This document shows positions 13,745 through 63,175 of a stretch of 64,000 nucleotides of DNA, one piece after another (position 1 is the first letter of the stretch; each line of letters starts with the position of its first letter). Source of the DNA: a virus. The translations under genes and the position numbers were made by a program. The stretch lies in IMG/VR virus record IMGVR_UViG_3300025012_000079, positions 4,081 through 68,080 of that record, one strand, 5' to 3'. The notes under the pieces are model-generated. The model had not been told where the DNA came from, searched no databases, and saw only the letters and a list, made by a program, of their open reading frames with translations.

Positions 13745-16700
13745 ATGCCTGAAATAACTGAAAGTCCATATAAGCAGTTTCTTATTGATGAAAAAGAAGA
13801 AAGTCCTTATAAGCAATTTATGGAAGATAGTTCTGCTTCAGCTACTGTTCCAGAAGATGCGCCTGATTTTATTCCTGGAGTGAAGAGAGGTCTACAGAAT
13901 CTTCAGGCATCTGCTTATGGCGCTACTGCTCTTGCAGGGAAAGGACTTAAAGAACTTGGTGCAGAATCTGTTGGACAGTCTATTCAAGATTTTGGTATGG
14001 AAGGATATCAACGAAATATTGAAGAGGCAAAACAATATCCTGCAAAGCATTCCTTTAAAGATATCTATACCGGTAAGACTGGTATTGGTGGTGCTGTTGA
14101 CTGGGCACAAGGAACCTTAGGTGAACTTGTTCCAAGTATGGCTGAAGCTGCGATTGGTGCTGGTATAGGATCTGTTGTTGCTCCTGGTCCAGGTACTGTT
14201 GCCGGAGGTTTGGCAGGTAGAACTTTGCTTAAGAAAGGAATTGATGAAACTGTCAAGCAGTCGATTAAGCGTGGAATTGGAGATTTGACAGAAGCTCAAG
14301 TAAGGAAACAACTTACGGGCCAAGCACTGAAGAAGTTTGGTGGTAAGGTTGGTATTGCCGGTTCAGTTATGCCTCTTGAGTCTGGTGGAATGTACTCAGA
14401 GATGCTGCAAGAAAAGGGCATTGATGCTCCTGAGACTGCCTTGCTGTTCGGAGCTCTGGCAACATCATTAGAATTTGCTGGTGGTAATAGTAAGTTGGTA
14501 GATACTTTTGTTGATGCCTTGAGCAAGGGATCTACTGGAACAGTTAAGAGATCTGCAAAGGAGTTGCTTACAAATATTCCTCAAGAAGCATTGCAGGAAG
14601 GTGGCCAGGAGCTGCTTAGTGTACTTAATACTGTAGCGAATACAGATGAGAAGTTACTGACTGCTGATAATGTTGAACGAATTATTGAGAGTATGGCTGC
14701 AGGTGCAATAGGCGGTGGCGCCGGTGCAGCAGTTAATGCAGGATTCTCTGCACAAGCTAAAGATCCTGGACCTGAAAAGACTGATGCAGAGCTTGAGCTT
14801 GACCGAAGAGCAACTAATATTCTCAATTTGAAAGAAGATGAACTTAGTAAGAGTGTTCAAACTTTAAATGATACTCTTAACTTGAATAAAGAAATTATTG
14901 ATGATCCTTATAAACTTGATCAGAAAGCAAGAGAGTTAAATGTTGATCCGGCTGAACTAATTAGAAAGACTGTTGAGGAGAATAAAAATAATCAAAGTCT
15001 CTTAGATCGGATTAATTCTGGAATCCAGAAGAAAGAAGAACTTGCTAAGAAAGAATATGAAACGCTTTCTCCTGAAGAGAAGCAGGTTAGAGATATTGAA
15101 AATAAATTATCTACTCATAGGTATGAATCTGCAAGCCAACTTAATGAAAGAATTACAAATATTGATAAGGAGATTACAACTCTCTCTGAACAATATAATA
15201 GTAAGTTTGATCCTTATGCATTAGATGCTAAGACTTCACCAAGTGCAGAAGAAAGAAAAGTAATTGAAGATAAACTTATTACATTGAACAAAAGGCGTAA
15301 TGAGTTACTTGATAAAGAAACTCCTGAGGTTAAGAAGGCCTTTGCTCCATACACTACTAGAGATGGTAGGCAGAAATATCTTGAGGAACTTTTTGGTACA
15401 GTAAATGTAGGAGAGAAGGTTGGTATAGAAAAAGATGCTGCTAAATCAGCAGAAGTTATAGAAAGTGAAATAGTTCCAAAATCTATAGCTGATTATGCAA
15501 ATCAAATAATTGCAAATAAATCTCAAGATAGGGCAGCTTTAAATGATCAGGCACCTTCAAGAACTCCTGAAGAAGAACATAATCTAAGGCAAATTCAAGA
15601 TTATGTAAATTATGTAAAGACATATATAAATAATAGTTTTACTCCTGAAGAAAGAAAGATTATTGAAAATTATTGGCAGGGTGTTAAGAAGGAATTGAAT
15701 CTTCGCCAGGAAGAAATGACTCCTGGGACGGAAGCCTTTATGAGGAAGAAGTTCTTTGAGACGCAGCTTGCTAATATTGAAGGTAATGTCAAAAGTGATA
15801 CAGCATCACAAGTTGGGGCAAAGCAAAATGTTGCTCCATCTTTAGCTGAACAAAACAAACGCCAGGCTTGGTTTCAACAAATTGCTAAAGATCTCGGAGA
15901 TGTTCAGGCCACAAATAGGCAGGCAGTTCAAACTGAGGTTCCTAGAAACTTGCCTAGGGGTTTGCAGAGTGGGTTCACTAATGAACAACAAGTTGCAGGT
16001 GCTCCACAGTTTCAAGTAAGTGAATCAAAAGCTTGGACAACACCACAACAAGAAGTATCTAGTGCAGCCACTTCGATTTCATATCCTACTCCAGAGAAAA
16101 AAGCTCCTATTATTTTTAGTGCTTTTAAAGAAGGAAAAATTAAATTAGGTCCAATTAATGCTGATATAGGTGGAGGTAAATTTGATCAAATTACTAATTG
16201 GTTATTTAATAAGGGAATAAAAAATATTGTTTGGGATAGATTTAATCGAGATGATAAACATAATCTTGCAGCAGAATCTTCCTTACGTGGAGGCAAAGCA
16301 GATACAGCAACTATTAGTAATGTATTAAATGTAATACCTACAAAAGAAGGTAGGATTGCAACTATTGCTACAGCATTTGATAGTATTAAGAATGGTGGTA
16401 ATGCATTTTTTTCTATGTATACTGCGCCAAAGTCTGGAGAAGTTAAGAATCGTGATTCTTATCAGACTGGTATGAAGACAGAAGAGTATGTAGCAGAGAT
16501 AGAAGAAGTATTTGGTAAAGGGTTAGTTATAAGAAAAGGGAATATTATTATAGCCACAAAACAACAAAATAATAATTCTCAGTTTCAAGCAACTGAAAAT
16601 CAAGAAGCATTAGGTAAAGTAAGTCTTGATGATATTAAACTAGATTTCCCTGGACAAGAAATAACACAATCTCCTGATGGAATAATATCAGTTAAGTTCA

Positions 16701-19645
16701 AGAATGGCCAAGGATTAACAATTAATAGCATTCAAAATGCTGGTCAAGGATTTGTTAAGTTAGCAATTGAAACTGGGCAAATGTCAAAGGATGGAAAGAT
16801 CCTTGGCATTACAACGGGTAATGAAATTCTTCTTGATGAGAACTTTGCAGACAATAAGACTCTTTGGCATGAAAACAAGCATGTCCTTGACAATCTTGGA
16901 TTGATTACAGAAGCAGATGATAGCGCTTTGAATAGGGAGTTTAACAAGCTGCGAAAGGCAGGTAAGCTTGATTTTGCTCTTAGTACTTATAATGATCCAA
17001 AGAAGAGTGAGAATGAGAATAAGAAGCAGCGGATGGTTGAAAATCGTGCGAACATGTTTGCTCAGATTATGGTCAACAGAGCTGAATATCGCAACACTGC
17101 GTTTGGTAAAGTGATTCAACGAGTAATGGACTTTTTTCAGCAGATGCTAAGCTTTGGTAAGCAGACTGTTTCTGGATTGGCTCGTGAAGTAGAAAGTGGA
17201 AAGCTTTATGATCGTCAAGCTGAGGCACTCCGTGAAGGTATGCCGATGTTCGAGGTTCGTGAAGAAACAGTTCAGAAGATCAGTGATGATGTTTATCAGC
17301 AAATGTTCAGCGAACGAAATAGTTTAGTTCGTACAATCGGCCAGACTCTTCGTATGCGTGGGCATGAAATTAAGCAGCTCATTGACAAGGGATTGGGGTC
17401 TATATCAACTAGGCTTAAGAACGTAGATCCTATGCTCCGTTCAGAAATTAGAAACCTAGACTTTCGGACTGCACAAAAGATTGTAACTGCATTACGGATT
17501 GCACATCCACTCCTGGAGAAGACTAAACAAATGAGTCCGCAAGACAAGTTTGTTTGGGATGCAGCTAGGAGAAACTCAGACGAGGTTAAGATAAAAGAAA
17601 TTGCAGAAAAATACAACATGACCGCTGATCAGGAAAAGCTGCGAGCAGTCTTAGATCAAATTAGACAAGATGCAATTGATGTTGGTTATGATGTTGGTTT
17701 TATCGAAGAATACTGGCCTCGCATAATTAAAGATCAGGAAGGATTCTTGCAGGCTACTAAAGGAATTTCTCAGCGACCAGTTATTACTGATGCAATCAAA
17801 GTTTATGCAGACAAACTTGGAATGACAGTTGAAAAGTTTGAAATTGAGTATCCTGAACAAGCAGCCGATATTGCAAGCAACACAATCCTTGGCAGGAACC
17901 TCGGTATTGGTGGACCAGGCAATATTCAAGCCAGGCAATATGAAACTGTTCCACCAGAATTGAATAAGTTCTACATGGATAGTGATGCAGCATTGATGCA
18001 ATACATCTATAGTATGACAAAGAAAATTGAAGCTAGACGTTTCTTTGGTAAGGTTCCAGAAAGAATAGCAACACTAAAGACTGAGAAGAAACGAAAGCAG
18101 GTAATGCTCACAGAGTATGAAAAATCCAACAATGCTACGCGCATAGAAGATGTTTCTGGTGACTTATTGCGAATCGAACAAGAATTGGATAAGTACAAAC
18201 TTCAGCGTGACTATACTGAGAATATTGGAACATATATTAATGATCTTCGAATGTCTGGTCGAATCCAAGCAGATGATGAAAAAGTAGTTAGAGATATTCT
18301 TGATGCTAGGTTCCATGAGCATGGAGCTACAGGAATAGTTAATGCCTACAAAAATATGTCATACATCGACGTAATGGGTTCGCCAATATCTGCACTGACT
18401 CAGATCGGTGATTTGGCCTGGGCAATGTATGTAGGCAAGGTATGGACACCACGTGGCTTAGCTGATACAATTAAGAATGTCGGTAAAGCCATAACTAAGA
18501 AGTCTGAAATAACTAAGGAAGACCTCGGAATTGAAAGGATAGCTCAGGAGTTTGCAGACGGAACTACGTTGGGGAATGCAGTAAGTTGGGTATTCAAAAA
18601 AGTGCAGCTTGAACGTATTGACTCGATAGGCAAAGAGACATTAATCAACAATGCGTTTAGCAACTACAAAGCTATGGCCAGTACAGAGGCTGGAAGGCAA
18701 GCATTGTTGAAGCAAATCAAACCGATCTTTGGCACACAGTCTGAAAGTGTAATAAATGATTTGCTTGCAGATAATCCTACAGACAACGTTAAGATGTTAC
18801 TGTACCATAGGTTGCTTGACTTTCAACCTGTAGCACTTTCTGAAATGTCAGAGCAATATCTCAAGAGTGGAAATGGTCGAGTATTTTATATGCTCAAGAC
18901 ATACACACTTAAGCAGTTTGATGTCTTCCGAAATGAGGCTTGGCACAAAATTAAAACGGGTGAACGGGATCAGGTTATTGAAGGAATTGGTAACATGATC
19001 AAGCTGGTAAGTTTACTTACACTTGCGAATGCAGGCGCGGATGAACTGAAAGACTGGATGTTGGGGAAAGAAACTAAGTTTGAAGATCACGTGATTGAAA
19101 ACTTCTTAACCATGGGCGGAGCATCAAAGTTTGTAAGGATGCAAACTACTAGGGAAGGTCTTGGCTCTGGATTGATCGGACAGATCTTGCCACCCTTCAG
19201 ATTTGTAAACTCCGTCAGTAAGGATCTTAACCAATTGTATGGATCTTACATTACTGGTGATACAATTGATTTTGATCATGCAAGAATTGTTGAATCCATT
19301 CCGATTGGGGGTAAGATTTATTATTGGCACTACGGACGAGGAGAAGATTATAAAAAGTCTAGCAATGAACAAGAGTTTGGTAAGATCAGTAAGGAAGTAG
19401 ATATATTCAAGAAGCAGCTTGAAAACTCGGAAGACAAGCGAACTTTCTTGAACTCAAACCTGGATGGATTCAAGCAAATGAAATTGCATGAAAACTTTCA
19501 GAGTGCTCTCAATCGGAATCAAGCGGTGATTAATAAGTTGAAAAAGATTGATCAGACAACAAATGTGAGAGAACGCTTGGGCCAGTTGCAGCAGCAACGA
19601 GAGGTGATCTTGAAAAGATATTTTGACGTAACAAATATGGAATAG
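13745..19645 (+). CDS. Large polyvalent internal virion protein with SAM-methyltransferase-like and HExxH domains
   Basis: 1966 aa, last structural gene; Gly/Ala-rich N-terminus; DIGGGK..SNVLNVI; LWHENKH. Confidence 0.7.
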   Translation: MPEITESPYKQFLIDEKEESPYKQFMEDSSASATVPEDAPDFIPGVKRGLQNLQASAYGATALAGKGLKELGAESVGQSIQDFGMEGYQRNIEEAKQYPAKHSFKDIYTGKTGIGGAVDWAQGTLGELVPSMAEAAIGAGIGSVVAPGPGTVAGGLAGRTLLKKGIDETVKQSIKRGIGDLTEAQVRKQLTGQALKKFGGKVGIAGSVMPLESGGMYSEMLQEKGIDAPETALLFGALATSLEFAGGNSKLVDTFVDALSKGSTGTVKRSAKELLTNIPQEALQEGGQELLSVLNTVANTDEKLLTADNVERIIESMAAGAIGGGAGAAVNAGFSAQAKDPGPEKTDAELELDRRATNILNLKEDELSKSVQTLNDTLNLNKEIIDDPYKLDQKARELNVDPAELIRKTVEENKNNQSLLDRINSGIQKKEELAKKEYETLSPEEKQVRDIENKLSTHRYESASQLNERITNIDKEITTLSEQYNSKFDPYALDAKTSPSAEERKVIEDKLITLNKRRNELLDKETPEVKKAFAPYTTRDGRQKYLEELFGTVNVGEKVGIEKDAAKSAEVIESEIVPKSIADYANQIIANKSQDRAALNDQAPSRTPEEEHNLRQIQDYVNYVKTYINNSFTPEERKIIENYWQGVKKELNLRQEEMTPGTEAFMRKKFFETQLANIEGNVKSDTASQVGAKQNVAPSLAEQNKRQAWFQQIAKDLGDVQATNRQAVQTEVPRNLPRGLQSGFTNEQQVAGAPQFQVSESKAWTTPQQEVSSAATSISYPTPEKKAPIIFSAFKEGKIKLGPINADIGGGKFDQITNWLFNKGIKNIVWDRFNRDDKHNLAAESSLRGGKADTATISNVLNVIPTKEGRIATIATAFDSIKNGGNAFFSMYTAPKSGEVKNRDSYQTGMKTEEYVAEIEEVFGKGLVIRKGNIIIATKQQNNNSQFQATENQEALGKVSLDDIKLDFPGQEITQSPDGIISVKFKNGQGLTINSIQNAGQGFVKLAIETGQMSKDGKILGITTGNEILLDENFADNKTLWHENKHVLDNLGLITEADDSALNREFNKLRKAGKLDFALSTYNDPKKSENENKKQRMVENRANMFAQIMVNRAEYRNTAFGKVIQRVMDFFQQMLSFGKQTVSGLAREVESGKLYDRQAEALREGMPMFEVREETVQKISDDVYQQMFSERNSLVRTIGQTLRMRGHEIKQLIDKGLGSISTRLKNVDPMLRSEIRNLDFRTAQKIVTALRIAHPLLEKTKQMSPQDKFVWDAARRNSDEVKIKEIAEKYNMTADQEKLRAVLDQIRQDAIDVGYDVGFIEEYWPRIIKDQEGFLQATKGISQRPVITDAIKVYADKLGMTVEKFEIEYPEQAADIASNTILGRNLGIGGPGNIQARQYETVPPELNKFYMDSDAALMQYIYSMTKKIEARRFFGKVPERIATLKTEKKRKQVMLTEYEKSNNATRIEDVSGDLLRIEQELDKYKLQRDYTENIGTYINDLRMSGRIQADDEKVVRDILDARFHEHGATGIVNAYKNMSYIDVMGSPISALTQIGDLAWAMYVGKVWTPRGLADTIKNVGKAITKKSEITKEDLGIERIAQEFADGTTLGNAVSWVFKKVQLERIDSIGKETLINNAFSNYKAMASTEAGRQALLKQIKPIFGTQSESVINDLLADNPTDNVKMLLYHRLLDFQPVALSEMSEQYLKSGNGRVFYMLKTYTLKQFDVFRNEAWHKIKTGERDQVIEGIGNMIKLVSLLTLANAGADELKDWMLGKETKFEDHVIENFLTMGGASKFVRMQTTREGLGSGLIGQILPPFRFVNSVSKDLNQLYGSYITGDTIDFDHARIVESIPIGGKIYYWHYGRGEDYKKSSNEQEFGKISKEVDIFKKQLENSEDKRTFLNSNLDGFKQMKLHENFQSALNRNQAVINKLKKIDQTTNVRERLGQLQQQREVILKRYFDVTNME

Positions 19646-19709: not shown

Positions 19710-20582
19710 TTATAAGAAACTGTTCCAAGGCACCATACTCATGACACGCTGCATATCAGGATGAGCAGACTTAGCTGTTCGTAGTTTTCTGATATGCGTC
19801 CACTCAGCTGCATCTGCTGTGACTACGATCTCAGTCTTCAAGGCATTGGGCAGGACGGCTCTGGCTTGTTGTGGAAACAAGCCGAAAGATAACATCTTAC
19901 TATAGTGTTCCTCAGATTTTCTACAGCTAGATATAAAAATGCTTCTGCAGAAATCCCAATCATCAAACCCAGTAGGCTCAATAAACTCCATATCCTTACC
20001 ACCATAGTTTACATACCTTGTACTTTCTTGGGCAAAACTGCATGGTCTGTGGCGTACCAACTCATGACTGACCCCGCGATCACAGATGAATTTTGCTGCG
20101 TAGCGATGGAGAAGAGTAGGAATCTCATCATATGGACAGGAATCCCACGGAGTATAAATTGGATCAAGCAGCACTATATCAAACAGATCATCATATCTTT
20201 TTGCGAACGCTCGAAAAATTGGATCATCCCAACCAACTATGTTCCCTCTTTGATGCCAGGCAGTAAGACTTCCTCCAACATAAATATAGTCAGAGTTCTG
20301 AATAACATTTAAATATTTTCCAACAACACTGACTATCGTTGATATCAATCCCATAACAATCGTTTCTGGCTGCTTCATTCGTACTACAAAATTCGAGTGC
20401 TCAACCATAGCCAGATGCCCAGCCTTAATCAGTTTCTTGACGAATCCTTCAGCACTATCTTCAGTAATCTTGTCTTCTGACTTGTAGCATGTTCTGCCTG
20501 CCATTTCTATAAACTTGAGTGCTGCATTATATTCTGTCGGGACTGCTCCGAAAAACTCAACGCTTGGTTTGATTATTTTCAT
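19710..20582 (-). CDS. thyX: Flavin-dependent thymidylate synthase
   Basis: AGRTCYKS, GHLAMVEH, RGVSHELVRHRPCSFAQESTRY (RHRx7S), ARAVLP. Confidence 0.95.
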   Translation of the reverse strand: MKIIKPSVEFFGAVPTEYNAALKFIEMAGRTCYKSEDKITEDSAEGFVKKLIKAGHLAMVEHSNFVVRMKQPETIVMGLISTIVSVVGKYLNVIQNSDYIYVGGSLTAWHQRGNIVGWDDPIFRAFAKRYDDLFDIVLLDPIYTPWDSCPYDEIPTLLHRYAAKFICDRGVSHELVRHRPCSFAQESTRYVNYGGKDMEFIEPTGFDDWDFCRSIFISSCRKSEEHYSKMLSFGLFPQQARAVLPNALKTEIVVTADAAEWTHIRKLRTAKSAHPDMQRVMSMVPWNSFL

Positions 20583-20586
20583 ATTC

Positions 20587-20841
20587 TTATTCTCCATCTT
20601 CATGATTTAAGGCTGCTATCAAATCATTATACAAAGCTTCTCTGGGATCAATTATGCAGTCTTTTGGGCTATTCATTAACTGTCCTTTTATTTCAGCTAA
20701 AACTTGTATCTGATAATTGAGATCTTTAATCTTTTCAGTAATTGAAATTATACTTGCTTCTGTTAAGTCTTTATGAAGAAATTCTCGAAGCAATGGAGCA
20801 TAAATACCAGCTCTATCAAGTGTTTTCAGATGTGATTTCAT
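20587..20841 (-). CDS. Hypothetical protein
   Basis: Packed minus-strand ORF. Confidence 0.5.
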   Translation of the reverse strand: MKSHLKTLDRAGIYAPLLREFLHKDLTEASIISITEKIKDLNYQIQVLAEIKGQLMNSPKDCIIDPREALYNDLIAALNHEDGE

Positions 20842-27643: not shown

Positions 27644-27843
27644 TCCTCATATGTTTGCTCATAATGAGTAGCACATTTTTCAACATCATACCATGTATTA
27701 AAATCACCAATAGGTTTTCCATTATCTTTAAATTTAAATCCGGCAGCTTTTAAAATAAATCTTATATGTACAGCCAGTGATGTATGAGGTACAGTAATAT
27801 TTTGTATTTCATAATCTGTAATAACTTTATGAACTGTTTTCAT
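27640..27843 (-). CDS. Hypothetical protein (AT-rich)
   Basis: ATGA overlap. Confidence 0.5.
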   Translation of the reverse strand: MKTVHKVITDYEIQNITVPHTSLAVHIRFILKAAGFKFKDNGKPIGDFNTWYDVEKCATHYEQTYED

Positions 27844-28109
27844 ATCCTATCCTTTGTCAATGCTCCTGGGTTCGGAGCTTTTATTTCCTGTTTACAGTCT
27901 AAGCAAAGATAAGAACGAACCCGGATAACATTTGCACTGATGATGTTGATAGCAAAGTTATAGTTTGGCTCATTTTTATAGCCGTTTGGCCAGCTCTTGG
28001 AGGCAAATCCTATTTCGAGTGGCACGATGTTTTTGTGTAGGCAACAGTTAGAACCAGGCGTGATGGGAGCTTTCTGTTCGGATAGTTGGCCTACTTTATA
28101 TTTTGTCAT
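27840..28109 (-). CDS. Hypothetical protein (CxH..CxxC)
   Basis: Packed ORF. Confidence 0.5.
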   Translation of the reverse strand: MTKYKVGQLSEQKAPITPGSNCCLHKNIVPLEIGFASKSWPNGYKNEPNYNFAINIISANVIRVRSYLCLDCKQEIKAPNPGALTKDRI

Positions 28110-28303: not shown

Positions 28304-29734
28304 TTAAAGTCCTTCTACTTCAGCAGTTATCCCAAGATAATTTTCAAGCCGCTGATAAAATTCTGGAATATACTTCTGGCTCTTATCACAACCAACTGGC
28401 ATCATTTTTTCTTTAGCTGCACTAATTAAGCAGTTACCAGATCCAGCAAAGAGACTCATAAATAATGTGCCAGGCTTACCTAATGCTTTTAAGAAATGAT
28501 CATAAAGCTCTATAGGCTTTTCCCACTGGTGAATGCGTTGACTAGAGCTGACTGTACTTATGTTAATTGAAGATGATAAGCTAGGAGTATTGAACTGTGC
28601 ATTTCCCTTACGCAGCAAGAGGAACATTTCCCAGTTGCTCACCATGTTTGTTTTCGGCTTATTGGTGCTGCCACCAACTTTGTTCCATGAACCGGGAGAC
28701 TGAACGCCAAACCCGATCTCTCGTGCAATATTGTTAATCTGTATAAAATGTTCTTTGCCTGTCCAGACTAAAGCCCAACTACAGTCAAGCATCTTTTCAT
28801 ATACTAAGGGAAGATAATTGAAGTAGAAATCATAAAGTTCTTTTTCATCCCAGTCTTGGGCTTTGCATTCGATCTTGTTTGTCTTACCATAGTTATCGTT
28901 AAAGTCAATCGCATATGGTGGATCGAGTTCTACCATTCCCACAGAGTTGTTAGGAATCTTGTCGAGGAAAGTTTTGTAATTTTCAGCTACATAAATTACT
29001 TGGATGTTAGATCTGATTGGTTCTTGCTCATCGTTAAGGTCTTCATCATCTTCATCAAACTCGGTGAGTCTTTCCTTGGCTTGCTTGGTTTTCTCAAACA
29101 CATTCTGAGTTACAGTATTTTTTATCGGTGCTGTCATGGTTCCGTTTTGCAGAGCAACTAAACGCCCTTTTTCAGCATCGGTAAAACTTCCCATTCGCTG
29201 AAGTGCTTTAGCTTGTTCACCAAGAGCTTTGTAGGCTTCTTTAGCTCGGCCTTTAGTAGACTGTTCTTTCAGGATTGGAAAGACTTTTAGGGCTTCTGCG
29301 AAGGCAAGATCAGTAGATAATCCACCGAGACTGCACTTGAGCCTCTTGGCTGTTTCTCTATAGCCCCAAGATTTGTTTTCCTTGCCTGCGGCTTCTACCC
29401 AATAGTTGTGCAGTTTATACTTGAGGTCTATTTCCTCATGCCATAGAAATTCCTTTCGGTCCATATTACTAAGGAGTTCGATCAAGAAATGATCATCTTC
29501 AGTAATGCCGTCAAATACTCGGACTTCAATGGTTTCTCGCCCAAGCTTTTTAAATGCTTCAATGCGGTGAAGGCCATCGATTAGGACGTTATTTGAATCT
29601 ATGAGAATCGCATGAAGTTGGCCGACCATTGAGATTGAATCAGCTAAGCTGGAGATGTCACCGACTGCTGAACGTGCGCGATCTTTGATGATAATGTCTG
29701 AAATGTTACGTTCTTCTATCTGGAAGAGTTGCAT
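28304..29734 (-). CDS. ParB/Srx domain + HTH + amino-DNA methyltransferase (beta class)
   Basis: LIDGLHR, SNMDRKEF, HTH-like YRETAKRLKCSLGGLS; DPPY, HQWEKP, FAGSG. Confidence 0.88.
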   Translation of the reverse strand: MQLFQIEERNISDIIIKDRARSAVGDISSLADSISMVGQLHAILIDSNNVLIDGLHRIEAFKKLGRETIEVRVFDGITEDDHFLIELLSNMDRKEFLWHEEIDLKYKLHNYWVEAAGKENKSWGYRETAKRLKCSLGGLSTDLAFAEALKVFPILKEQSTKGRAKEAYKALGEQAKALQRMGSFTDAEKGRLVALQNGTMTAPIKNTVTQNVFEKTKQAKERLTEFDEDDEDLNDEQEPIRSNIQVIYVAENYKTFLDKIPNNSVGMVELDPPYAIDFNDNYGKTNKIECKAQDWDEKELYDFYFNYLPLVYEKMLDCSWALVWTGKEHFIQINNIAREIGFGVQSPGSWNKVGGSTNKPKTNMVSNWEMFLLLRKGNAQFNTPSLSSSINISTVSSSQRIHQWEKPIELYDHFLKALGKPGTLFMSLFAGSGNCLISAAKEKMMPVGCDKSQKYIPEFYQRLENYLGITAEVEGL

Positions 29735-30021: not shown

Positions 30022-30324
30022 CTAGTTTAAATTTTGAAACTGCCTCTTGATTAACTCTATTTGAGCTGCTGAAAGTTTGCCAAGCAAGTCTGTTGCATTC
30101 TTGGTTGGATCAGCCAGCATCTTCTTGCCTTTCTTTGTTCCAGAGTTCTTAGAGATGTTCTTCATGGCAGACTTGGTAATCTTTTGAGACTTAACAAGTG
30201 CTGCATTCAGCGCAGATGTTCGCATAGTCCGAACGCGTTCAATCAGTCTGGCTTGCTCTGGATAAGACATTTCTAAGAATGATCGGCAGTAAATACGATC
30301 CATTAGTGGCATAATTTGCTCCAT
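30022..30324 (-). CDS. Basic hypothetical protein
   Basis: Packed ORF. Confidence 0.55.
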   Translation of the reverse strand: MEQIMPLMDRIYCRSFLEMSYPEQARLIERVRTMRTSALNAALVKSQKITKSAMKNISKNSGTKKGKKMLADPTKNATDLLGKLSAAQIELIKRQFQNLN

Positions 30325-30578: not shown

Positions 30579-30797
30579 CTATTCCTCAATTCCAGGCAAA
30601 GTTAATGCCTTTCCCTTGTACATATAATCAAGAATCTCATTCAGCTTGCCCCCATTAATGATGCTTTTCAGCGAAAGGAATATTTGCCTGAACAGTTTTG
30701 TCTGCTGTCCATGATGGAAGTGTTCCTGGACTTGTTCATACAAGTCTTTATCTATTCGTGCAGTTACTTTACATTCTTCTTTAAGCATTTTGTTCAC
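30579..30797 (-). CDS. Possible ribbon-helix-helix DNA-binding protein
   Basis: KVTARIDKDLYEQV strand-helix pattern. Confidence 0.45.
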   Translation of the reverse strand: MNKMLKEECKVTARIDKDLYEQVQEHFHHGQQTKLFRQIFLSLKSIINGGKLNEILDYMYKGKALTLPGIEE

Positions 30798-33037: not shown

Positions 33038-33199
33038 TGATTCTCCCTTAAGAGATATTTATCTTTGCTAAACATTAATATTTTAGCAGATTAATTCTTA
33101 GTAAAGATAAATAAAAATAAAAGTTGTCGTTCAAATACTTGCGAACCATTCAACAGGTTGTTCATAAGTGAACGACAAGTTTTATTTGTTAAAATAAAT

Positions 33200-38649: not shown

Positions 38650-39399
38650 TTAGTTATTAATAAATTTAAAAATCTCTTCTCCAATATTAATGTTTAGTGT
38701 TTCAGTTGTATTAGCCCGCTGACGGGCTTTTTTAAATGCTCGAATAAGTTTGTCGATCTTTTCAAGCAAAATTGATTTTTCTGCTGGTGAAATCATTCCA
38801 GACCAAGAATTGGTTATATACTTACCAATATTGTTTACTTTAGATACTTCTTTTACTTGTGCTGGATGCTCTTTTGTTGCTTCATATAAAACAACTGGTT
38901 CTACGACAGTCTCAGTTCTTAGTTTCTCAATTGGCTTTGCTGCCTTATAGATGTTTTTTCCTATTGATGTATCAAGTTCCCAAGAAATTCCAGGAGCTAA
39001 TGTTGGAATGGCTTCATAAACAGTTCGAAGATATTTTAATCTTGTTTCCATTCCAAGTAAGAATGTTGCTGGTAAGTTAGTACCAAGTGTAATTCCATCT
39101 ACGATCAAATCTGCTTTAGCAACTTGATTTGTAGCTTCTTTCTGGAGAATAGCATCAAAATAACGTACTTCAGTTTTCTGCATATGAGATAATTTATCTT
39201 TTACAGTAGTATCGATTGCTTTTTCTTCTTCTGGATAATCAATACCGTCTTCGATAAATGCTTCATATCGTCGATGCTGTCCCAGGAAGTGATCTGACTT
39301 CTTGGTAAAGGTATTCTTAGTTTCTTCAATAATCTTTTTATGTGCCCCTTCAAGATCACCTTCAACAGCAAGTAACTCATGCAATAATGACTTTTTCAT
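38650..39399 (-). CDS. Conserved helical protein flanked by structured RNAs
   Basis: AGGAG RBS; LHELLAVE, N..AKADL, PAT.LL..E, IPTL.P, LYEAT.EHPAQV, WSG, KKARQRAN. Confidence 0.75.
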   Translation of the reverse strand: MKKSLLHELLAVEGDLEGAHKKIIEETKNTFTKKSDHFLGQHRRYEAFIEDGIDYPEEEKAIDTTVKDKLSHMQKTEVRYFDAILQKEATNQVAKADLIVDGITLGTNLPATFLLGMETRLKYLRTVYEAIPTLAPGISWELDTSIGKNIYKAAKPIEKLRTETVVEPVVLYEATKEHPAQVKEVSKVNNIGKYITNSWSGMISPAEKSILLEKIDKLIRAFKKARQRANTTETLNINIGEEIFKFINN

Positions 39400-46558: not shown

Positions 46559-46794
46559 TATGACCTCCGTAAGACTGCAAATATTTCATTACTGTGGGAT
46601 TGCTTAGTCAGGGTTTGTTTCTGAAATTTCAAGGTGTTGCCAGCTTTGAGCCAGTTAATCAGTTCAAAGTATGTCACATTGGCAAGATACTTCCATCCCA
46701 TATGGGTTCCAAATCTGTTGTAGAAACGAATCGTTTTGCCTTTCATAATTGTAACATGGCCTCCTAAGTGTGAATTTATGTAATGGGCGTTCAC
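46558..46794 (-). CDS. Hypothetical protein
   Basis: Packed ORF; start uncertain. Confidence 0.45.
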   Translation of the reverse strand: MNAHYINSHLGGHVTIMKGKTIRFYNRFGTHMGWKYLANVTYFELINWLKAGNTLKFQKQTLTKQSHSNEIFAVLRRS

Positions 46795-46809
46795 AGATGA
46801 ACAGCGAAA

Positions 46810-47849: not shown

Positions 47850-48242
47850 TTAATTTAAAGAAGAAAGCTCTTTTTCAAGATCTTCCAAAGATTTGCCTTT
47901 ATCAATATCTCCTTTCTTTTCAGTGATTAAAGACTTCAAATATTGCTTTCTCTGAATAAGGGCAAGCTCATTTTCCCTGGATTCAATTTCTGCTTGCTTA
48001 GTAGTAATAATATCTTTTACCAATTCAAGCTTTTCACGCAAAACATTGGTAACATTATTACTGGTGGAAACGAAATCCTCTTCACCTGCATCTTTGATTT
48101 GTTTGTTAATACTTTTTGCAACATCATTAAGATTTGCTCTGCGTGAAGTGAGAGGAAGATCAAATAAATCTTCAACCATAACTGAACCTTGAATAGTCTC
48201 AAAACGCCACTTTTCAATTGCTGCTTTCTTGTACAGTTCCAT
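47850..48242 (-). CDS. Phage coiled-coil protein
   Basis: AAGGAG RBS; RF....G...VEDLFDLPL. Confidence 0.7.
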   Translation of the reverse strand: MELYKKAAIEKWRFETIQGSVMVEDLFDLPLTSRRANLNDVAKSINKQIKDAGEEDFVSTSNNVTNVLREKLELVKDIITTKQAEIESRENELALIQRKQYLKSLITEKKGDIDKGKSLEDLEKELSSLN

Positions 48243-48257
48243 AATGTTCTCCTTGTA

Positions 48258-50267
48258 TTAGAATTGTACCTTGATGGTACGGTTGAAAGATCCGCTTACC
48301 TTAATGATTATTTCATCAGGCTGAGTGAATGAAAAACCAAGTCCAGAAAGCTGATTATTTGAGCTTGATACTGTCATTTTATTGCCAAGGACTTCGAAGA
48401 CTTTTCTATGGGTTTTTAAATCCCCCTTAAGGAATTCATTGAAAAATCCTCTTGGGGTTTCTAAGTTTAAACATTTATCCAATATAAAGAATATATGCTT
48501 GTTTCCGTGCATAGAAGAATTTTCCCAATAATTTGGTGAGTACATAATCATTTTGGTTTTGTGAAACTTGGTTGTTTTAATTCCCCATACTGTTACTTCT
48601 GATTCTTGGTGAGGAAGACTACTTATTATTGAAAAAGTTCCATTTTCGTCAAGCCTAACTTCTACAAAAGTGACTTCTTCATCATTTCTTAATCCTTTAG
48701 AATATGAAAAGGTAAAAAGCTTTCCCTCAAGTTCAAGCTCTGCTCTGATTGGATTCAGCATATTGTCTCTTTGCTGATAGTTGTGAATGTAAAACTTATA
48801 AGTACCTGGAAGCATTTTGCATTTATTTGTATAGATGATGTTTTCTACTGGCTTTTCTCTATGTCCATCTATACCATTAGCATCTACGTCGAGTATTCCA
48901 GATGATGGAAAGCACAGTCTAACGGAAGTATAATAAATATGATTTTTTGGTTCTTGGCAATGTATATCTAAATCTGTTTTTCCATCCCAGGCAGCTGAAA
49001 ATCTCATTATTACGTTCTCTGTCCTCCCACCGGCAATTTTAACTCTTTCTTTTATTGAATCAGTTACATTACCATTATATACGTGACAAAAGTTATTTTC
49101 CCACTGAAACAAAGATGGTGCAGAAGCATCTTCTGGAGCAATTAAACTCATAAGTTTGTTTTGATGTTTGTTTTCAAACAAAATTTCTATACTTTCTGCA
49201 TTTGGAATTACTCCAGATACGAAATCTTCTATTGATATTTTGTCAATCTTATTTAGGTTTTGTGGTAAATTTGAATGATCACTTAATAGTAAGTCAAATG
49301 GACTGCTTTTCATTACAGACTTGATTGAACGGTCGGCAAAGATAACATCATTAATACTTATATCTTCAGCAACTGCAAATCTTCTTTGTAATGAGTTTTC
49401 TAAGCCAAGTTCAATAATTTTCTCTTGTGCTTGTTTGATCATTTTTGGTGTTATAACTGCTGAAGGTCTCTGATAGTTTTGTGGAGCAACTTTTGATTCG
49501 TAAGCACTTACGGCAATGTTAATATCTTTTCCTTCAGAAAGATCAACTAACAATGTTCCAATTACTGTGTTTCTTATTCTTACTGAAGATGCTTTGATAT
49601 TTTGCCAAGGAAAGATTGCTTTGTTTTCTGTAGCAAGATATTGTTTTTGATAAATATCAAAATCTTTTACTAAGTTAAGGAATTCTGAGCCTCTGTATAT
49701 TGAATTTTGATTAATTAGGTCAATTACAGTTTCTACAGCATCGGGATTGATTTCTGTTAATGCTCGTTTGAACATTTCTGCATTTGTATTTGATTCACTA
49801 AATTTGGTTCCAATAATTGAATCTTTGCAAACAAGTTGTTTAGGCATAGCTGAATAGAAGTGATGCCAAGTTATAGCCTCATTATAATTGTCTTTATTTG
49901 GCTTTCTTCCAGCACTAGATTCTGTAGTAAGAAAAATACTTTCAATTGTACTGGCTTCTACGAGTATTGCTAGTTTTGATGCCACTTGATTGTAAGGAAA
50001 TTCAAGGTTTGGAAGATTCCAGATTGATATCTGCTTTTCATCTTGAATTGCCACAACATTGCCGATTGCTTTAATGAAGCTGCGGCAAGCCTGGCAATCA
50101 TGTTCTGATCTTTGTCGAAATATTTTATTTGTACCTTCAGGAAAAGCTTTTAAGTATTCAGAATAAAGAGTTTCTCCAGATATTGTTGTGCGGAAAAGGT
50201 TTGATTTGTTAGAGAGAAGTTGAAAGTTGCTATTTATTGCTTCTGCAAATGGTGAAAAGTCACTCAT
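48258..50267 (-). CDS. Large early protein of unknown function
   Basis: 669 aa; EHDCQACRSF; DLDIH..LDVD..PVENI (YfaP-like). Confidence 0.75.
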   Translation of the reverse strand: MSDFSPFAEAINSNFQLLSNKSNLFRTTISGETLYSEYLKAFPEGTNKIFRQRSEHDCQACRSFIKAIGNVVAIQDEKQISIWNLPNLEFPYNQVASKLAILVEASTIESIFLTTESSAGRKPNKDNYNEAITWHHFYSAMPKQLVCKDSIIGTKFSESNTNAEMFKRALTEINPDAVETVIDLINQNSIYRGSEFLNLVKDFDIYQKQYLATENKAIFPWQNIKASSVRIRNTVIGTLLVDLSEGKDINIAVSAYESKVAPQNYQRPSAVITPKMIKQAQEKIIELGLENSLQRRFAVAEDISINDVIFADRSIKSVMKSSPFDLLLSDHSNLPQNLNKIDKISIEDFVSGVIPNAESIEILFENKHQNKLMSLIAPEDASAPSLFQWENNFCHVYNGNVTDSIKERVKIAGGRTENVIMRFSAAWDGKTDLDIHCQEPKNHIYYTSVRLCFPSSGILDVDANGIDGHREKPVENIIYTNKCKMLPGTYKFYIHNYQQRDNMLNPIRAELELEGKLFTFSYSKGLRNDEEVTFVEVRLDENGTFSIISSLPHQESEVTVWGIKTTKFHKTKMIMYSPNYWENSSMHGNKHIFFILDKCLNLETPRGFFNEFLKGDLKTHRKVFEVLGNKMTVSSSNNQLSGLGFSFTQPDEIIIKVSGSFNRTIKVQF

Positions 50268-51880: not shown

Positions 51881-51986
51881 TGTTATTCCTGTTCACCATC
51901 GAACAGCCATACAACCATCATATAATCGCTAGTCATGCAAGCAAGGTTGTTAGGCATTTTACAGGTTGTTAGGCATTAGCAATAAG

Positions 51987-53511: not shown

Positions 53512-54115
53512 GATTTATTTTGCATGTCCATTCTGCCTGGTACACCTTGCCTGGTCATTGGCAATATAGCCTGGTACAACTTGTATGATGCTCGACAGTC
53601 TGCCAGGACCATCATGTTAAAATATTTCCCTTGTTGGATTGTTCCACAGTTTGCCAGGATTACCTGCTTGCCTGGTGTAACTCTTGTATGATTGCGACGT
53701 ATGTCGCGGGAACAATCTTTCTTGTGTGTAACCTGCTTGCGTGTGGATGCCTCGATCTCTCTGTAGTGGATTAGGCTTTCTATATAGAGTTGCAGAAATA
53801 ACCAACTTCACATTGCCGTCAATCCGGACAATTACCAACCTCGTTCATAAATGAACATCAAGTAGGGAACAATTAAACTGGCATAAGTAATCAACTTGGT
53901 TTACATAGAAACTTGGTAGCCTTAGCAAAACAGCCAGCCCTTAGATATTATAGGAGGCTCAATATGTTTGCCGGCATTATGGAAAAAGCAGGAAAATTAA
54001 GTCCTTATGCATTTTAATATTGACCTTTTCACTATAATATGTCAACGTAAAATAAGACAATTCCAAAAGGTTCACAACATCCATTTAACCCACTTCACCT
54101 GTAAAGCTGTCAACC

Positions 54116-54802
54116 ATGTTGAAAGAACTCAAATCTCAGCACCGCAACATAATTCAGATGGCCTTTAATGGTTATAAGAATCAGGAAATCGCTGAGCGTC
54201 TTGGCATGGCACAATCATCCGTATCTACAATTCTGCGTTCACCGTTAGGTCAAGCTTACTTAAATGGCCTTCAAGACAGGGCGCACGAAGCAACTTTGGA
54301 CGTTCGTAAAAAGCTAGTCAGCCTCAACAAGGAGGCGCTAGCAACCTTCGAGCATCTTCTCAACTCGAGTTCCCGCAAAGCTGTTCCAGCATCCGTACAG
54401 TTTAATGCAGCCAAAGATGTGCTTGATCGCAATGGTTATAAGGCTCCAGATCGTTTGAACATCGACATGACGCTGCAAACCAAAACTGATGAAGAACTCG
54501 ATGCTGAGATAGCTGCAATCGAAGAAGCTATCAACCGTACTGGTGGTAAAAATCTTCCAGAGATTAAAAAATCCTTACGACAAAACTTATCATTTACGAC
54601 CATTCCTCTTACTTCAGATCATGCTGTTGTCACGAATACTGCCAACGAGGATGATTTATCTCTGGAAGATTTGTTCTGTACTGAAGAACAAGCTGGCCTA
54701 TTTATTCCTGACGAATCTTTTGAAGAGCCCCTTCTGATGGAAGACACCTCAATTTTAGAAGACCTATCATTTGATCCCTTTCACAATATTAAAAGGTCAT
54801 AA
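54116..54802 (+). CDS. Putative terminase small subunit
   Basis: N-terminal HTH (NQEIAERLGMAQSSVS), AAKDVLDRNG; coupled to TerL. Confidence 0.7.
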   Translation: MLKELKSQHRNIIQMAFNGYKNQEIAERLGMAQSSVSTILRSPLGQAYLNGLQDRAHEATLDVRKKLVSLNKEALATFEHLLNSSSRKAVPASVQFNAAKDVLDRNGYKAPDRLNIDMTLQTKTDEELDAEIAAIEEAINRTGGKNLPEIKKSLRQNLSFTTIPLTSDHAVVTNTANEDDLSLEDLFCTEEQAGLFIPDESFEEPLLMEDTSILEDLSFDPFHNIKRS

Positions 54803-60028: not shown

Positions 60029-60040
60029 ATAGGTGTTATT

Positions 60041-60988: not shown

Positions 60989-61003
60989 TAAGAGGATTAT
61001 GTT

Positions 61004-61417
61004 ATGACAGAGCAGGCAAATAAAATAGAGAGTGTTAAAAGCGAGCAACCGCGTAAGAGAATTCCTCTTGGATCGAGGAATATCTTGACTGCACCGAAGA
61101 AGGTCGGTTTCGTGCGCCGATTTGTTAATGACACTGGAGATCGCATTCAGATGTTTAAGGCTGCTGGATGGAACGCTGTTGATGATGGCTCACCTGTTGG
61201 AGACTCGAAGATTGGAAGGCCTACTCAAATTGGTAGTACCACCAACCCGAGTGTAGGTAACAATCAAAGGGCTGTTCTAATGGAGATCCCAGAAGAGATT
61301 TATGAGGCAGACCGAGCCGAATCACAAGCCAAGATTAGTGAGGTAGAAAGCCAAATTAAGCGGAACTCTCGTGGCGAGGGTAAAGATGGCTTGTCTGGAA
61401 GTGTGACTATTTCGTAA
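61004..61417 (+). CDS. Head-module protein
   Basis: GFVRRFVND..RI..GW, LMEIP. Confidence 0.65.
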   Translation: MTEQANKIESVKSEQPRKRIPLGSRNILTAPKKVGFVRRFVNDTGDRIQMFKAAGWNAVDDGSPVGDSKIGRPTQIGSTTNPSVGNNQRAVLMEIPEEIYEADRAESQAKISEVESQIKRNSRGEGKDGLSGSVTIS

Positions 61418-61445
61418 AATTTAAATTTTTGTTGAGGTAAAAAAT

Positions 61446-62042
61446 ATGGCAAATCTTGATACTCCTTTCGGTTTTAAACCGGTAAAACATTTAAACGGGT
61501 CTCCTTGGAACGGTCAGGCAAATGTTTATTACATTCCGTCTACGGATAACGTAGCTACTTTTAAAGGTGATGCAGTTAAAAGTGCTGGATCTGCAGATAC
61601 TACTGGCAAGTATCCTACTGTCACTCAAGCTACTGCTGGTGCTGCAGTGAGAGGTGTTATAATTGGTTTTGGTGATAATCCTTATGTGATGATTCAGGCT
61701 GATACTCCGCTTCGTGCATATCGTCCGGCAGCTACTGCAATGTATTGCCTGGTAGTTGATGATCCTCAGGTTATTTTTGAAGTCCAAGAAGATAGTGATG
61801 CCAACTCTATTACTGCTGCAATGGTTGGACTTTCTACTAACTTTGTAGTTGGCTCCGGCTCAACGGCTACTGGCAAGTCTGCCATGGAACTTGACTCCAG
61901 CGATACTGCAACTGACACCAGTGGTAATTGTAGAATTTTGCGGTTGGCTAATCGAGAAGATAACGAGCTTGGTGATTATGCCAAGTGGGAAATTCTTTTC
62001 GGAGAGCATGAGCTTGGCCTGACTATTTCAACTGATGTTTAA
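61446..62042 (+). CDS. Putative capsid decoration protein
   Basis: MAN.D.PFGFKP, V.DDP..FEVQ; directly upstream of capsid gene. Confidence 0.65.
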   Translation: MANLDTPFGFKPVKHLNGSPWNGQANVYYIPSTDNVATFKGDAVKSAGSADTTGKYPTVTQATAGAAVRGVIIGFGDNPYVMIQADTPLRAYRPAATAMYCLVVDDPQVIFEVQEDSDANSITAAMVGLSTNFVVGSGSTATGKSAMELDSSDTATDTSGNCRILRLANREDNELGDYAKWEILFGEHELGLTISTDV

Positions 62043-62094
62043 TTAGTTGGCTTTTAACTTTGGCTATTTAATCATCATTTAAAGGAGCATACAA

Positions 62095-63018
62095 ATGAGT
62101 ATTATTACTACTAGTAATTTTGCAAAAGATCTTGTGCCTGGTGTAAAGACTTGGTTCGGACAGAAATATAAAGAGTATCCGATTGAATATTTGGACATTT
62201 TTGAAAAAACTAACTCTACAAAGGCTTTCGAAGAGGAAGCTGGCGTAACTGGTTTTGGTCTTGCGGCTGTAAAGACTGAAGGTGCAGGGATTGCGTATGA
62301 TGAGCAGGAGCAGGGCTTTGTTAGTCGCTACACTCATGTAACGTACGGCCTCGGGTTTATTATTACTCGGGAAATGTACGAAGATGGCATTGCAGTAACA
62401 GTCGCGCTGCGTCGTGCAAATGCACTTGCCTTCTCCATCCGGCAGACCAAAGAGATTATTGGCGCGAACGTTCTCAATCGGGCATTTACCTCTACTTATA
62501 CTATGGGAACTAATAGTGATGGCAAGGAGCTTTGTGCTACTGATCATCCGAATAAGTCCGGCGGAACTTGGCGTAATGAACTTGCTACTGCCGCAGATCT
62601 TAGTGAAGCTGCTCTCGAGCAGGCTTGCATTGATATTGCTGCGTTCACAACTGATCGTGGACTTAAGATTGCGATTATGCCCCAGAAGTTGATCATCCCG
62701 ACTGCTCTTGAGTTTGACGCTATGCGGATTCTCGAATCTATTGGACAGTCCGGCACAGCAAATAATGATATCAATGCTATTCGGGCATCGAAGAAGTTTC
62801 CACAAGGCATTGCTGTGAATCATTACTTGACGGATAGTGATGCATGGTTTATTAAGACTAACTGTCCAGACGGCCTGAAGTATATGGAACGTCGGCCGGA
62901 TGCGTTTGGTACTGAGAATGACTTCGATACTGAGAATGCCAAGTTCAAAGCAACTTTCCGTGGTTCGTTTGGTTGGTCTGATCCGCGAGGTATTTTTGGT
63001 TCTCCTGGTGCTGCATAA
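62095..63018 (+). CDS. Major capsid protein
   Basis: AAAGGAG RBS; K.EG....D, ITREMYED, PQKLIIP, AWF, GWSDPRG. Confidence 0.88.
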   Translation: MSIITTSNFAKDLVPGVKTWFGQKYKEYPIEYLDIFEKTNSTKAFEEEAGVTGFGLAAVKTEGAGIAYDEQEQGFVSRYTHVTYGLGFIITREMYEDGIAVTVALRRANALAFSIRQTKEIIGANVLNRAFTSTYTMGTNSDGKELCATDHPNKSGGTWRNELATAADLSEAALEQACIDIAAFTTDRGLKIAIMPQKLIIPTALEFDAMRILESIGQSGTANNDINAIRASKKFPQGIAVNHYLTDSDAWFIKTNCPDGLKYMERRPDAFGTENDFDTENAKFKATFRGSFGWSDPRGIFGSPGAA

Positions 63019-63175
63019 TAACTTGGTGTTCATAAGTGAACAGCCAAGACTAACGCTGGCAACTGACCGTTCTTTGTGATGAGCTTAGAACGGTCTTAAT
63101 AAAGTGGGTAAATGAAAGTTAAAATCTTTCAGGCAGTTCTTTGAGATAAGAAGAATTGTTCCAGTGGAGGAAATT

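Follow-up and report, generated by a model that had tools for sequence, protein, structure and literature searches.

Dispersed palindromes in a tailed-phage genome as candidate parS-like sites of a ParB-HTH-methyltransferase fusion

Introduction

KorB of the plasmid RK2 is both a repressor and a partition protein, with IncC as its ParA partner. From OB, where it loads, it slides as a closed cytidine triphosphate (CTP) clamp and reaches targets as far as 1.5 kb off, and OB palindromes are dispersed over RK2 (PMC11790492); parS and NBS, the sites of the ParB and Noc systems, are 16-bp palindromes (PMC11109969). The ParB-CTPase fold also occurs fused to an N6_N4 methyltransferase, and a 2025 survey places this architecture among the commonest ParB fusions, enriched in phages and prophages, and leaves its role open, 'perhaps in anti-defense' (PMC12704722). 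Here we describe a 64,000-nucleotide stretch of phage DNA (the window), bases 4081-68080 of the 68,080-bp virus record IMGVR_UViG_3300025012_000079. It encodes a fusion of this kind, a ParB-HTH-methyltransferase (HTH, helix-turn-helix), and carries at five dispersed places one palindrome, GTTCAYNNRTGAAC, which is a candidate for the parS-like cognate site of that protein.

The domain architecture of the window protein is the same as that of the fusions in the survey; the accessible part of the survey gives no DNA sites or cognate palindromes for them, unlike the present analysis (PMC12704722). A full-text literature search, with subscription-only papers and supplements outside its scope, likewise found no cognate DNA sites assigned to a ParB-methyltransferase fusion. 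Two other reports concern ParB-like proteins: the accessible text of one describes a ParB-like activator of phage thymine dioxygenases that has no obvious DNA-binding domain (PMC13229309; 2026), and that of the other, a 2026 preprint, states that a parS-like repeat was not found for the plasmid ParB-like protein HerB (10.64898/2026.07.07.736705).

The locus resembles ParB-parS and Noc-NBS in that an N-terminal ParB-CTPase fold is followed by a ParB-type HTH, and in that the candidate site is a palindrome of 14-16 bp. Its outer bases, YGTT...AACR, resemble those of parS (TGTTTCACGTGAAACA, as quoted in an initial annotation of this DNA that was made from the sequence alone). Unlike parS, the window site has no constraint on its central 4-5 bp and carries additional half-sites further out; its copies are also evenly spread over a phage genome of lytic type and not clustered near an origin. 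The likeness to KorB and OB of RK2 lies in the many copies of one palindrome dispersed over a mobile replicon of about that size (60 kb for RK2; five copies in 68 kb here and 3-10 in relatives), and KorB differs from the window fusion in having no enzymatic domain.

The stoperators of mycobacteriophages, the sites of L5 gp71, are many dispersed copies of one short site, found within and between genes and with a preferred orientation. They are asymmetric 13-bp sites of a temperate-phage repressor and are oriented with transcription. The short site described here is similar in its many dispersed copies, within or between genes, and in having an orientation preference. It differs in that its core is palindromic, that no lysogeny genes were found among the open reading frames (ORFs) scanned, and that the orientation bias follows the genome and not the strand of the gene.

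The palindrome in the window

The pattern GTTCAYNNRTGAAC has five exact matches in the window:

Site A, 63028..63041, GTTCATAAGTGAAC: 10 bases past the stop of the major capsid gene
Site B, 15973..15986, GTTCACTAATGAAC: within the coding sequence of a 1966-residue virion protein (13745-19645, plus strand)
Site C, 33160..33173, GTTCATAAGTGAAC: in the 555 bp that separate the DUF669-like gene from the ligase block, among minus-strand genes
Site D, 46789..46802, GTTCACAGATGAAC: in a short gap between two minus-strand early genes
Site E, 53843..53856, GTTCATAAATGAAC: about 260 bp upstream of terS

The whole 68,080-bp record contains the same five sites and none in its remaining 4 kb. In 100 dinucleotide-preserving shuffles the mean count was 0.01 and the maximum 1. 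When one mismatch is allowed, zero further sites appear in the window (0.66 expected), and when GTTCA is required to face TGAAC at any spacing from 0 to 9, only a spacer of 4 is found (5 sites; spacers 0-3 and 5-9 give none).

The positions and sequences of the five matches are those that the initial annotation gave, the enrichment over shuffles bears it out, and its chance estimate of 0.02 per 64 kb was of the right order of magnitude. It had also extended the motif to YGTTCA..TGAACR, and this holds in the 63 non-redundant sites collected from relatives, of which 59 have C/T at position -1 and 61 have A/G at position +15. A near match that it had added at 51891 (GTTCACCATCGAAC) has at least two mismatches and lacks the TGAAC half-site, and is not a member of the family.

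The ParB-HTH-methyltransferase

28304..29734, minus strand: ParB N-domain, ParB-type HTH and beta-class N6/N4 methyltransferase, 476 residues; candidate reader of the palindrome

The domain assignment, which is that of the initial annotation, is agreed upon by PHROGs, Pfam, PDB profiles and AlphaFold2 (AF2)/Foldseek. PHROG ParB-like matches cover residues 5-125, and the C-terminal half matches Pfam N6_N4_Mtase PF01555 at 3e-12 (47.4 bits vs a cut-off of 26.7). A profile built from orthologues and compared with the PDB finds ParB (4umk, 9e-6) and Noc (7ng0/7nfu, 1.4e-5) for the N-domain, residues 17-108, and DpnA (1e-7), MboIIA, RsrI and CcrM for the C-terminal half. The sequence-only PDB alignments of the N-terminal part end at residue ~108, and the region beyond was covered by an AF2 model of residues 1-250 made from 17 sequences, with a mean predicted local distance difference test score (pLDDT) of 76 and about 90 over residues 101-170. 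The best Foldseek match of this model is pNOB8 ParB-N (E 9e-8, 249 columns, range 249-254) and the second-best is KorB (8qa9, E 4.5e-7, 221 columns, range 203-221). Noc and the Myxococcus, Caulobacter (C. crescentus ParB, 190 columns) and Thermus ParB proteins are also matched, and the probability is 1.00 for ParB, Noc, KorB and pNOB8 ParB. These alignments span 146-254 columns and take in the N-domain plus the HTH DNA-binding domain. The HTH sequence WGYRETAKRLKCSLGGLSTDLAFAEALKVFP is conserved among orthologues.

In the catalytic part, VELDPPYAI precedes FAGSGNCLISA, which is the beta-class order (alignment A4). The enzyme is in this respect like DpnA, M.MboIIA, M.RsrI and CcrM, which are beta-class N6-adenine/N4-cytosine methyltransferases with DPPY before FAGSG, and unlike them it is fused to a ParB N-domain and an HTH. 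The N6_N4 methyltransferase domain occupies residues ~260-476, and the fusion protein has no C-terminal dimerisation domain. The replacement of that domain by a methyltransferase, a Box II that reads GLHR and the lack of a ParA in the ORFs scanned set the locus apart from ParB-parS; for ParA, no family match was obtained with PHROGs/Pfam among 60, 31, 24, 14 and 24 proteins, very small ORFs not all being scanned. The methyltransferase fusion is conserved down to 23% identity.

The orthologue in the phage G023 (locus L164) has DPLY and not DPPY as motif IV and GERR as Box II, the reverse of the window protein with its DPPY and GLHR. A 100-residue helical protein (30022-30324, minus strand) is conserved near the ParB-methyltransferase gene and belongs to no assigned family.

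Conservation of the sites in related phages

Relatives were retrieved through TerL, which gave 79 related viral loci; individual genomes are named below by G numbers where they need to be told apart. The strict pattern is present in 16 of 22 related records, and the six without it are four with a TerL identity of 52% or less and two at 74%. The latter two (G015 and G016) use a 5-base spacer throughout, with 6 and 7 sites and none with a spacer of 4. When the pattern is relaxed to GTTCA-Nn-TGAAC, 5-7 sites are present in each of the ten fetched relatives with a shared replication module, always with a single spacer length per genome. By chance, GTTCA-N4/5-TGAAC would be expected about 0.08 times per genome, or 0.6-0.96 times summed over 11 genomes for each spacer. 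Further records gave GTTCA-N4/N5-TGAAC in 8 of 8 and 4 of 4 cases, and the copies in relatives overall number 3-8, at conserved places. In G013, which shares TerL only, GTTCA-Nn-TGAAC was not found. Some lineages (G008, G011) prefer AAAA/TTTT at the centre.

The homologous places are after the capsid stop, upstream of or in terS, in the gap between the ligase and DUF669 genes, in the early region, near the point where the two gene blocks converge, and in the giant virion gene. Of ten genomes, eight have the site A element directly behind the capsid stop, with a spacer of 4 or 5; the exceptions are G005, whose contig ends inside the element, and G007, where the site lies 91 bases downstream of the stop. 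Counterparts of site C are found between the ligase and DUF669 homologues of G000, G001, G003, G004, G005, G008, G009 and G011, and homologues of site D in G001, G003 and G004. Site E has a counterpart upstream of or inside terS in most relatives, and also in G023, G033, G032, the Desulfofustis phage, G035 and G036; a site near terS is missing in G031 and G034.

A counterpart of site B is present in the giant gene of all ten genomes examined. Its DNA encodes S-x-F-x-N-E-Q-Q-V amid sequence that is otherwise unconserved and cannot be aligned. In the giant gene of G015, where the spacer has 5 bases, translation passes through the left half in a different frame and both DNA half-sites are kept; therefore, selection acts on the DNA.

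A search with the fusion protein retrieved a group of 44-47-kb phages (G023 and G030-G033), in which the orthologue is 41-56% identical. They share with the window the replication module, the N-terminal ~110-130 residues of TerS and one small protein, and mostly also a second:

54116..54802, plus strand: small terminase subunit (TerS) with an N-terminal sigma70-r4/LuxR-type HTH; a rival reader
30579..30797, minus strand: conserved 72-residue protein, probably ribbon-helix-helix (RHH); a minor rival reader or partner
27840..28109, minus strand: 89-residue Cys-rich (CCxH...CxxC) protein, conserved beside the ParB-methyltransferase gene

TerL, portal, capsid and giant gene are not shared with these five phages at E 1e-4 or better. 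All five contain GTTCA-N5-TGAAC, in 7, 4, 6, 2+1 and 8 copies, at places analogous to those above: after a gene of 438-446 residues, near terS and inside a long gene of the tail region. In G023, G031, G033 and G032 a site lies within the ParB-methyltransferase gene itself, and this presence of a site inside the phage's own parB-like gene is a further likeness to ParB-parS. The GTTCA motif is kept across phages with 33-50% G+C and with different structural modules. The initial annotation had proposed to look at the co-occurrence of motif and gene in relatives, and the motif is indeed enriched and conserved in number and position in relatives.

The 89-residue protein has no family or PDB match and is syntenic in G023. 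The giant virion gene and its homologues range from 907 to 3422 residues across relatives, have one weak PHROG match and no PDB match, and always contain one copy of the palindrome, about 680-990 codons in. For this gene, the idea of a virion RNA polymerase or hairpin promoter was considered and dropped for want of PDB or family support.

Covariation of site and recognition helix

In 17 orthologues (38-97% identity), all of them from GTTCA genomes, the HTH shows no variation at positions S135 and L139-S-T-D-L143. Distant fusion homologues (23-32% identity) have other helices and other dispersed palindromes, with 6-10 copies per complete or near-complete genome:

Desulfofustis phage LS06-2018-MD01 (25.6% identity): helix SISRDLK; GTCCCA-N3-TGGGAC, 6 exact and 3 near copies, 0 in 200 simulations
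G034 (23% identity): helix SVHQDLQ; TGAATAA-N3-TTATTCA, 10 copies
G036 (27% identity): helix TVSMDIK; TGGGG-N7-CCCCA, 8 copies
G035, G038, G039 and G040 (26-27%): the similar helices SLIKDIQ, TIIQDIQ, SLVKDIQ and SLIQDMQ; TGGTA-N7-TACCA, 7, 5, 3 and 2 copies

Because a frame CTAT-TGxxxAA...TTxxxCA-ATAG is common to most of the elements in the distant homologues, these palindromes point to one site family with a variable specificity core. On these comparisons, the type of motif is shown to change together with the lineage of the fusion protein. The comparative evidence favours a phage-encoded reader, and this fusion in particular, over a host box or an ordinary promoter-bound operator.

In three other cases (Mel-JY34, MW202489 and G013) a ParB-like methyltransferase could be aligned over the N-domain only, and Caulobacter phage Kuura gave no ParB-like methyltransferase match; in these four a comparable multi-copy dispersed palindrome was not found. 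In MW202489.1 (locus L220) the ParB-N-domain methyltransferase adjoins the polymerase, and GGTTTAC-N6-GTAAACC occurs at 475, 18883 and 38794 (adjusted P 5.6e-4), which is possibly another site dialect in a GC-rich lineage.

A tie between spacer length and Box II/F145 held in the 17 orthologues and was broken by G042 and G043. The trees did not discriminate among the candidate readers. In the tree of the ParB-methyltransferase the clade with the 4-base spacer is monophyletic (98/96). The polymerase tree is ambiguous: in a quick mixture tree the G016 lineage is nested inside, and with LG+G4 the 4-spacer rows form one clade with a support of 94.

Duplex site or hairpin

Beyond the core, the right flank continues with G, C, C/A and A; 56 of 63 non-redundant sites have A at +19, and the mirror image on the left is weaker. 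The consensus is an imperfect palindrome of 26-30 bp, about ACTTGGT-GTTCA-N4-TGAAC-AsCAAGT. Such an element could in principle act as a folded single strand. Over 85 non-redundant sites, however, the cognate flanks form 3.16 pairs vs 3.50 when the right flanks are swapped among sites, and the minimum free energy is -7.18 kcal/mol with cognate flanks, -7.74 with swapped flanks and -2.3 for the core alone. The stem sequence is invariant and shows no covariation, the centre bases occur in both orientations regardless of which strand is transcribed, and Rfam has no match for the element. As single strands, the five window sites fold with -2.6 to -8.9 kcal/mol; the lowest value is that of site A (z -5.2), and one site folds no better than its shuffles. 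A run of T is found only at the 33160 site, on the non-coding strand.

An extended or selected hairpin and an intrinsic terminator are rejected, the pairing of the flanks being no better than that of swapped ones and the fold energies uneven. The palindrome fits a sequence-specific protein site on duplex DNA and not a selected hairpin, because the flanks show no compensatory pairing.

Promoter and terminator scans stayed at the level of shuffles, and the promoter scan (53 vs 53.2 expected; 59 vs 69.3) was uninformative. Downstream of the capsid-gene palindrome, at 63042-63130 and at the homologous places in relatives, there is a second, terminator-like hairpin; its stem is wholly different in each genome, unlike the invariant palindrome.

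Spacing of the sites

The sites occur every 7-21 kb. When complete genomes are treated as circles, most of them have a largest gap below that of randomly placed sites: G009 (P=0.004), G024 (P=0.007), the Desulfofustis phage (9 sites, P=0.007), G023 (P=0.026) and G000 (P=0.07). Combined by Fisher's method, seven genomes give P=1.2e-5, four of the seven coming from a single family whose sites are homologous; a hand calculation with one representative of each family (G000 or G009, G023, G034 and Desulfofustis) gives roughly 1e-3 to 1e-4. Even spacing, together with sites inside long ORFs, fits a factor whose reach from each site is limited.

A candidate site-reader pair

We suggest that the palindromes are parS-like cognate sites of the ParB-HTH-methyltransferase, a reading that, judged from sequence comparisons, has about an even chance of being correct. 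The ParB fusion is the best candidate for the reader. The pair would be one of the ParB/parS type, and what is new would be the effector and the genome-wide, evenly spaced layout. The parS-like candidate of the initial annotation has in part been borne out, in that the motif is enriched, conserved and changes with the lineage of the fusion protein; the degenerate Box II and the co-inherited TerS N-terminal domain tell against it.

In the mechanism that we envisage, the palindrome would be the core of a site of ~26-30 bp that is read as double-stranded DNA by a phage-encoded dimeric protein. The sites would be parS-like points of entry or anchoring, spaced so that the whole phage chromosome is within reach. 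A pair of HTH domains would read the two half-sites, after which the N-domains would engage, in a nucleotide-dependent manner at least in those relatives that keep GERR. The protein would then leave the site along the DNA, as ParB and KorB do, and the fused beta-class methyltransferase would modify phage DNA preferentially in cis. By analogy with the known clamps, this complete course of loading, sliding and methylating is possible rather than probable.

Several observations weigh against the pairing of site and fusion protein, and they should be set out together. First, the window protein's Box II is LIDGLHR (GLHR) and not GERR/GERRxRA. In all 11 orthologues of the 4-spacer clade it reads G[LAF][HRN]R, while GERR is kept in six orthologues of 5-spacer genomes and in G042/G043. 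With such a degenerate Box II, canonical CTP switching is doubtful in the window phage. Second, helix and site do not always go together. G037 has GTTCA-N5-TGAAC (6 copies in 25 kb) with the helix SISMDMN, and G042 and G043 combine GERR and L145 with a 4-base spacer. No exact palindrome with at least three copies was found in the partial loci L249, L250, L263, L264, L266/L267 and L270, and the G036-type (L251-type) palindrome is missing from G041 (15 kb). The change from N5 to N4 is a single event on the tree, and the sites are homologous among related genomes, so that their counts overstate the number of independent events.

Third, other proteins accompany the motif. The N-terminal HTH domain of TerS is present in all motif-bearing lineages checked, including Desulfofustis, G034, G035 and G036, and since it reaches these distant lineages, presence and absence cannot separate TerS from the fusion protein. 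The 72-residue RHH-like protein also co-occurs with the motif in the closer lineages, where the ParB-methyltransferase, the TerS N-terminal domain, the 72-residue protein and mostly the 89-residue protein are found together. Fourth, one flank is better conserved than the other, and mostly on the same side relative to the genome, minus-strand block included. This polarity is seen in 26 of 33 sites, in 7 of 7 in G023 and, by a simple index summed by hand over the 4-spacer clade, in 34 vs 7, counts that are non-independent because the sites are homologous. A symmetric ParB dimer does not explain such an asymmetry.

Alternative explanations

Five other readings were weighed, and they are taken here in order of their probability. 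The foremost keeps the ParB-HTH-methyltransferase as the binder and gives the sites another task, either silencing and timing of genes in the manner of KorB or compaction and organisation of replicating DNA, with the methyltransferase acting independently. Several sites do lie at operon boundaries (upstream of terS, after the capsid gene, in gaps between early genes), and KorB offers a precedent of dispersed operators with long-range repression (PMC11790492). The 72-residue RHH-like protein, encoded two to four genes away, could by analogy be a clamp-lock partner. Other sites are inside long ORFs and distant from promoters, however, and the promoter scan gave no sign of enrichment of promoter-like sequences or of their association with the sites. 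The regular spacing suits coverage better than promoter control, and the retention of the methyltransferase fusion at such low identity argues that the enzyme is part of the function. We consider this reading unlikely.

Less probable again, and in our view improbable, is that the palindromes are binding sites of TerS, pac-like or otherwise related to packaging, with a uniform direction relative to it. What speaks for TerS is that its N-terminal ~110-130 residues stay alike (37-49% identity, profile E 1e-14 to 1e-17) even between phages with no detectable relationship in TerL, whereas its C-terminal part is specific to each lineage. In addition, the domain accompanies the motif as described above, most genomes have a site within terS or a short way upstream of it, and the asymmetry of the flanks mostly keeps one direction along the genome, whichever strand the genes are on, as a packaging signal would. 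Against this, the recognition helix of TerS varies widely among genomes that share an invariant GTTCA half-site. Two genomes, G031 and G034, are without a site near terS, and 4-9 further sites lie elsewhere in the genomes. Pac sites are single and do not come in 5-10 evenly spaced copies. The idea that the sites mark genome or contig ends found no support, as only 2 of 38 contig ends fall within 350 bp of a site vs 1.5 expected (the end of G005 inside a half-site being excluded).

A signal in nucleic-acid structure or cleavage would be either an RNA or single-stranded DNA hairpin, serving in processing, attenuation or priming, or a strand-specific nick as in T5-like phages. The good fold of site A, spacers of 4 or 5 at homologous places, asymmetric and mostly co-oriented flanks, and an NAD-dependent ligase conserved in the module would all be in keeping with it. 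The lack of compensatory pairing in the flanks, the invariant stem, the uneven folding of the window sites and loop bases that occur in both orientations whatever strand is transcribed are not, and no nickase, HNH or HUH gene was seen among the ORFs scanned. We regard such a signal as quite improbable.

A shade less probable still is a function of the palindromes as operators, with a small phage protein such as the 72-residue RHH-like or the 89-residue zinc-binding one as the regulator. Both proteins are conserved beside the ParB-methyltransferase gene in the 60-68-kb and the 44-47-kb lineages, and the model of the 72-residue protein (AF2 pLDDT 88) appears to resemble RHH DNA-binding proteins, the top VIA-align matches being mostly RHH and weak (Z <=3.8). 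That protein has no Foldseek, Pfam or PDB-sequence match. Its predicted DNA-reading strand varies (KVTARI, KATVKI, KATFRI, NAAFRV) despite the same GTTCA half-site, neither profile matches anything in the Desulfofustis phage, which still has dispersed palindromes, and single sites inside long ORFs would be unusual for operators. Finally, a box of a host transcription factor or nucleoid protein exploited by the phage is very improbable, as changes of the motif from one phage lineage to another run parallel to those of phage proteins, and as the motif is kept across phages of 33-50% G+C with different structural modules.

Possible meaning for phage biology

If the palindromes are indeed parS-like sites of the fusion protein, one may imagine a broad group of uncultured tailed phages with self-targeting modification. 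Their clamp-methyltransferases would load at lineage-specific palindromes set at even distances on the phage chromosome, travel along the DNA, methylate it in cis and spare host DNA that has no sites. Site and helix would co-evolve in at least six site dialects (GTTCA-N4, GTTCA-N5, GTCCCA-N3, TGGTA-N7, TGGGG-N7 and TGAATAA-N3). We offer this wider picture, co-evolution included, as a tentative one that is on balance doubtful. If true, it would extend the loading principle of ParB/parS from segregation (ParB), nucleoid occlusion (Noc) and silencing (KorB) to the delivery of a DNA-modifying enzyme, and it would explain how a phage could modify its own DNA quickly and selectively. The site-helix pairs would then also be a data set for working out the code by which HTH domains of the ParB type recognise DNA, and orthogonal ParB/parS pairs could be drawn from them. 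For several fusion lineages, the analysis supplies candidate cognate sites, their number and spacing, and the HTH residues that covary with them.

The phage genome

CheckV rates the virus record as complete. Its last ~140 bases (window 63860-64000) repeat its first ~140 with one mismatch, in a repeated coding segment. Since the ends of the record overlap, the genome would be circularly permuted or terminally redundant, and the record, though classed as linear, is probably a circular/circularly permuted or terminally redundant assembly. The 15 runs that contain this sequence are labelled as groundwater metagenomes. Megablast found no close cultured relative, and the best TerL match is EBPR podovirus 1, at 52.6% identity.

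Gene content was determined by ORF calling with PHROGs/Pfam scans and is that of a tailed phage with two convergent blocks, a plus-strand structural block and a minus-strand block of replication and early genes. The former runs from terS, terL, portal, a GroES-like gene and the capsid gene onward to the 1966-residue virion protein. The latter encodes a thymidylate-synthase-like protein, a DnaQ-like exonuclease, a primase, a family-A polymerase and the ParB-methyltransferase, and further an NAD ligase, a DUF669-like protein, a Sak4-like ATPase, an exonuclease and a helicase. Among the ORFs scanned there was no lysogeny gene, RNA polymerase, ParA or nickase.

The thymidylate-synthase-like gene lies at 19710-20603 on the minus strand and is a partial match to PHROG 85. 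Two minus-strand genes, at 47850-50267 and 38650-39399, are without a counterpart in the ten fetched relatives. A 669-residue protein (phrog_1735) shares 43% identity with hypothetical proteins from Vi1-like phages of Salmonella and Erwinia. This protein, its 130-residue neighbour (phrog_2018) and a DUF7873 protein are missing from all ten fetched relatives, and the three genes look like accessory insertions.

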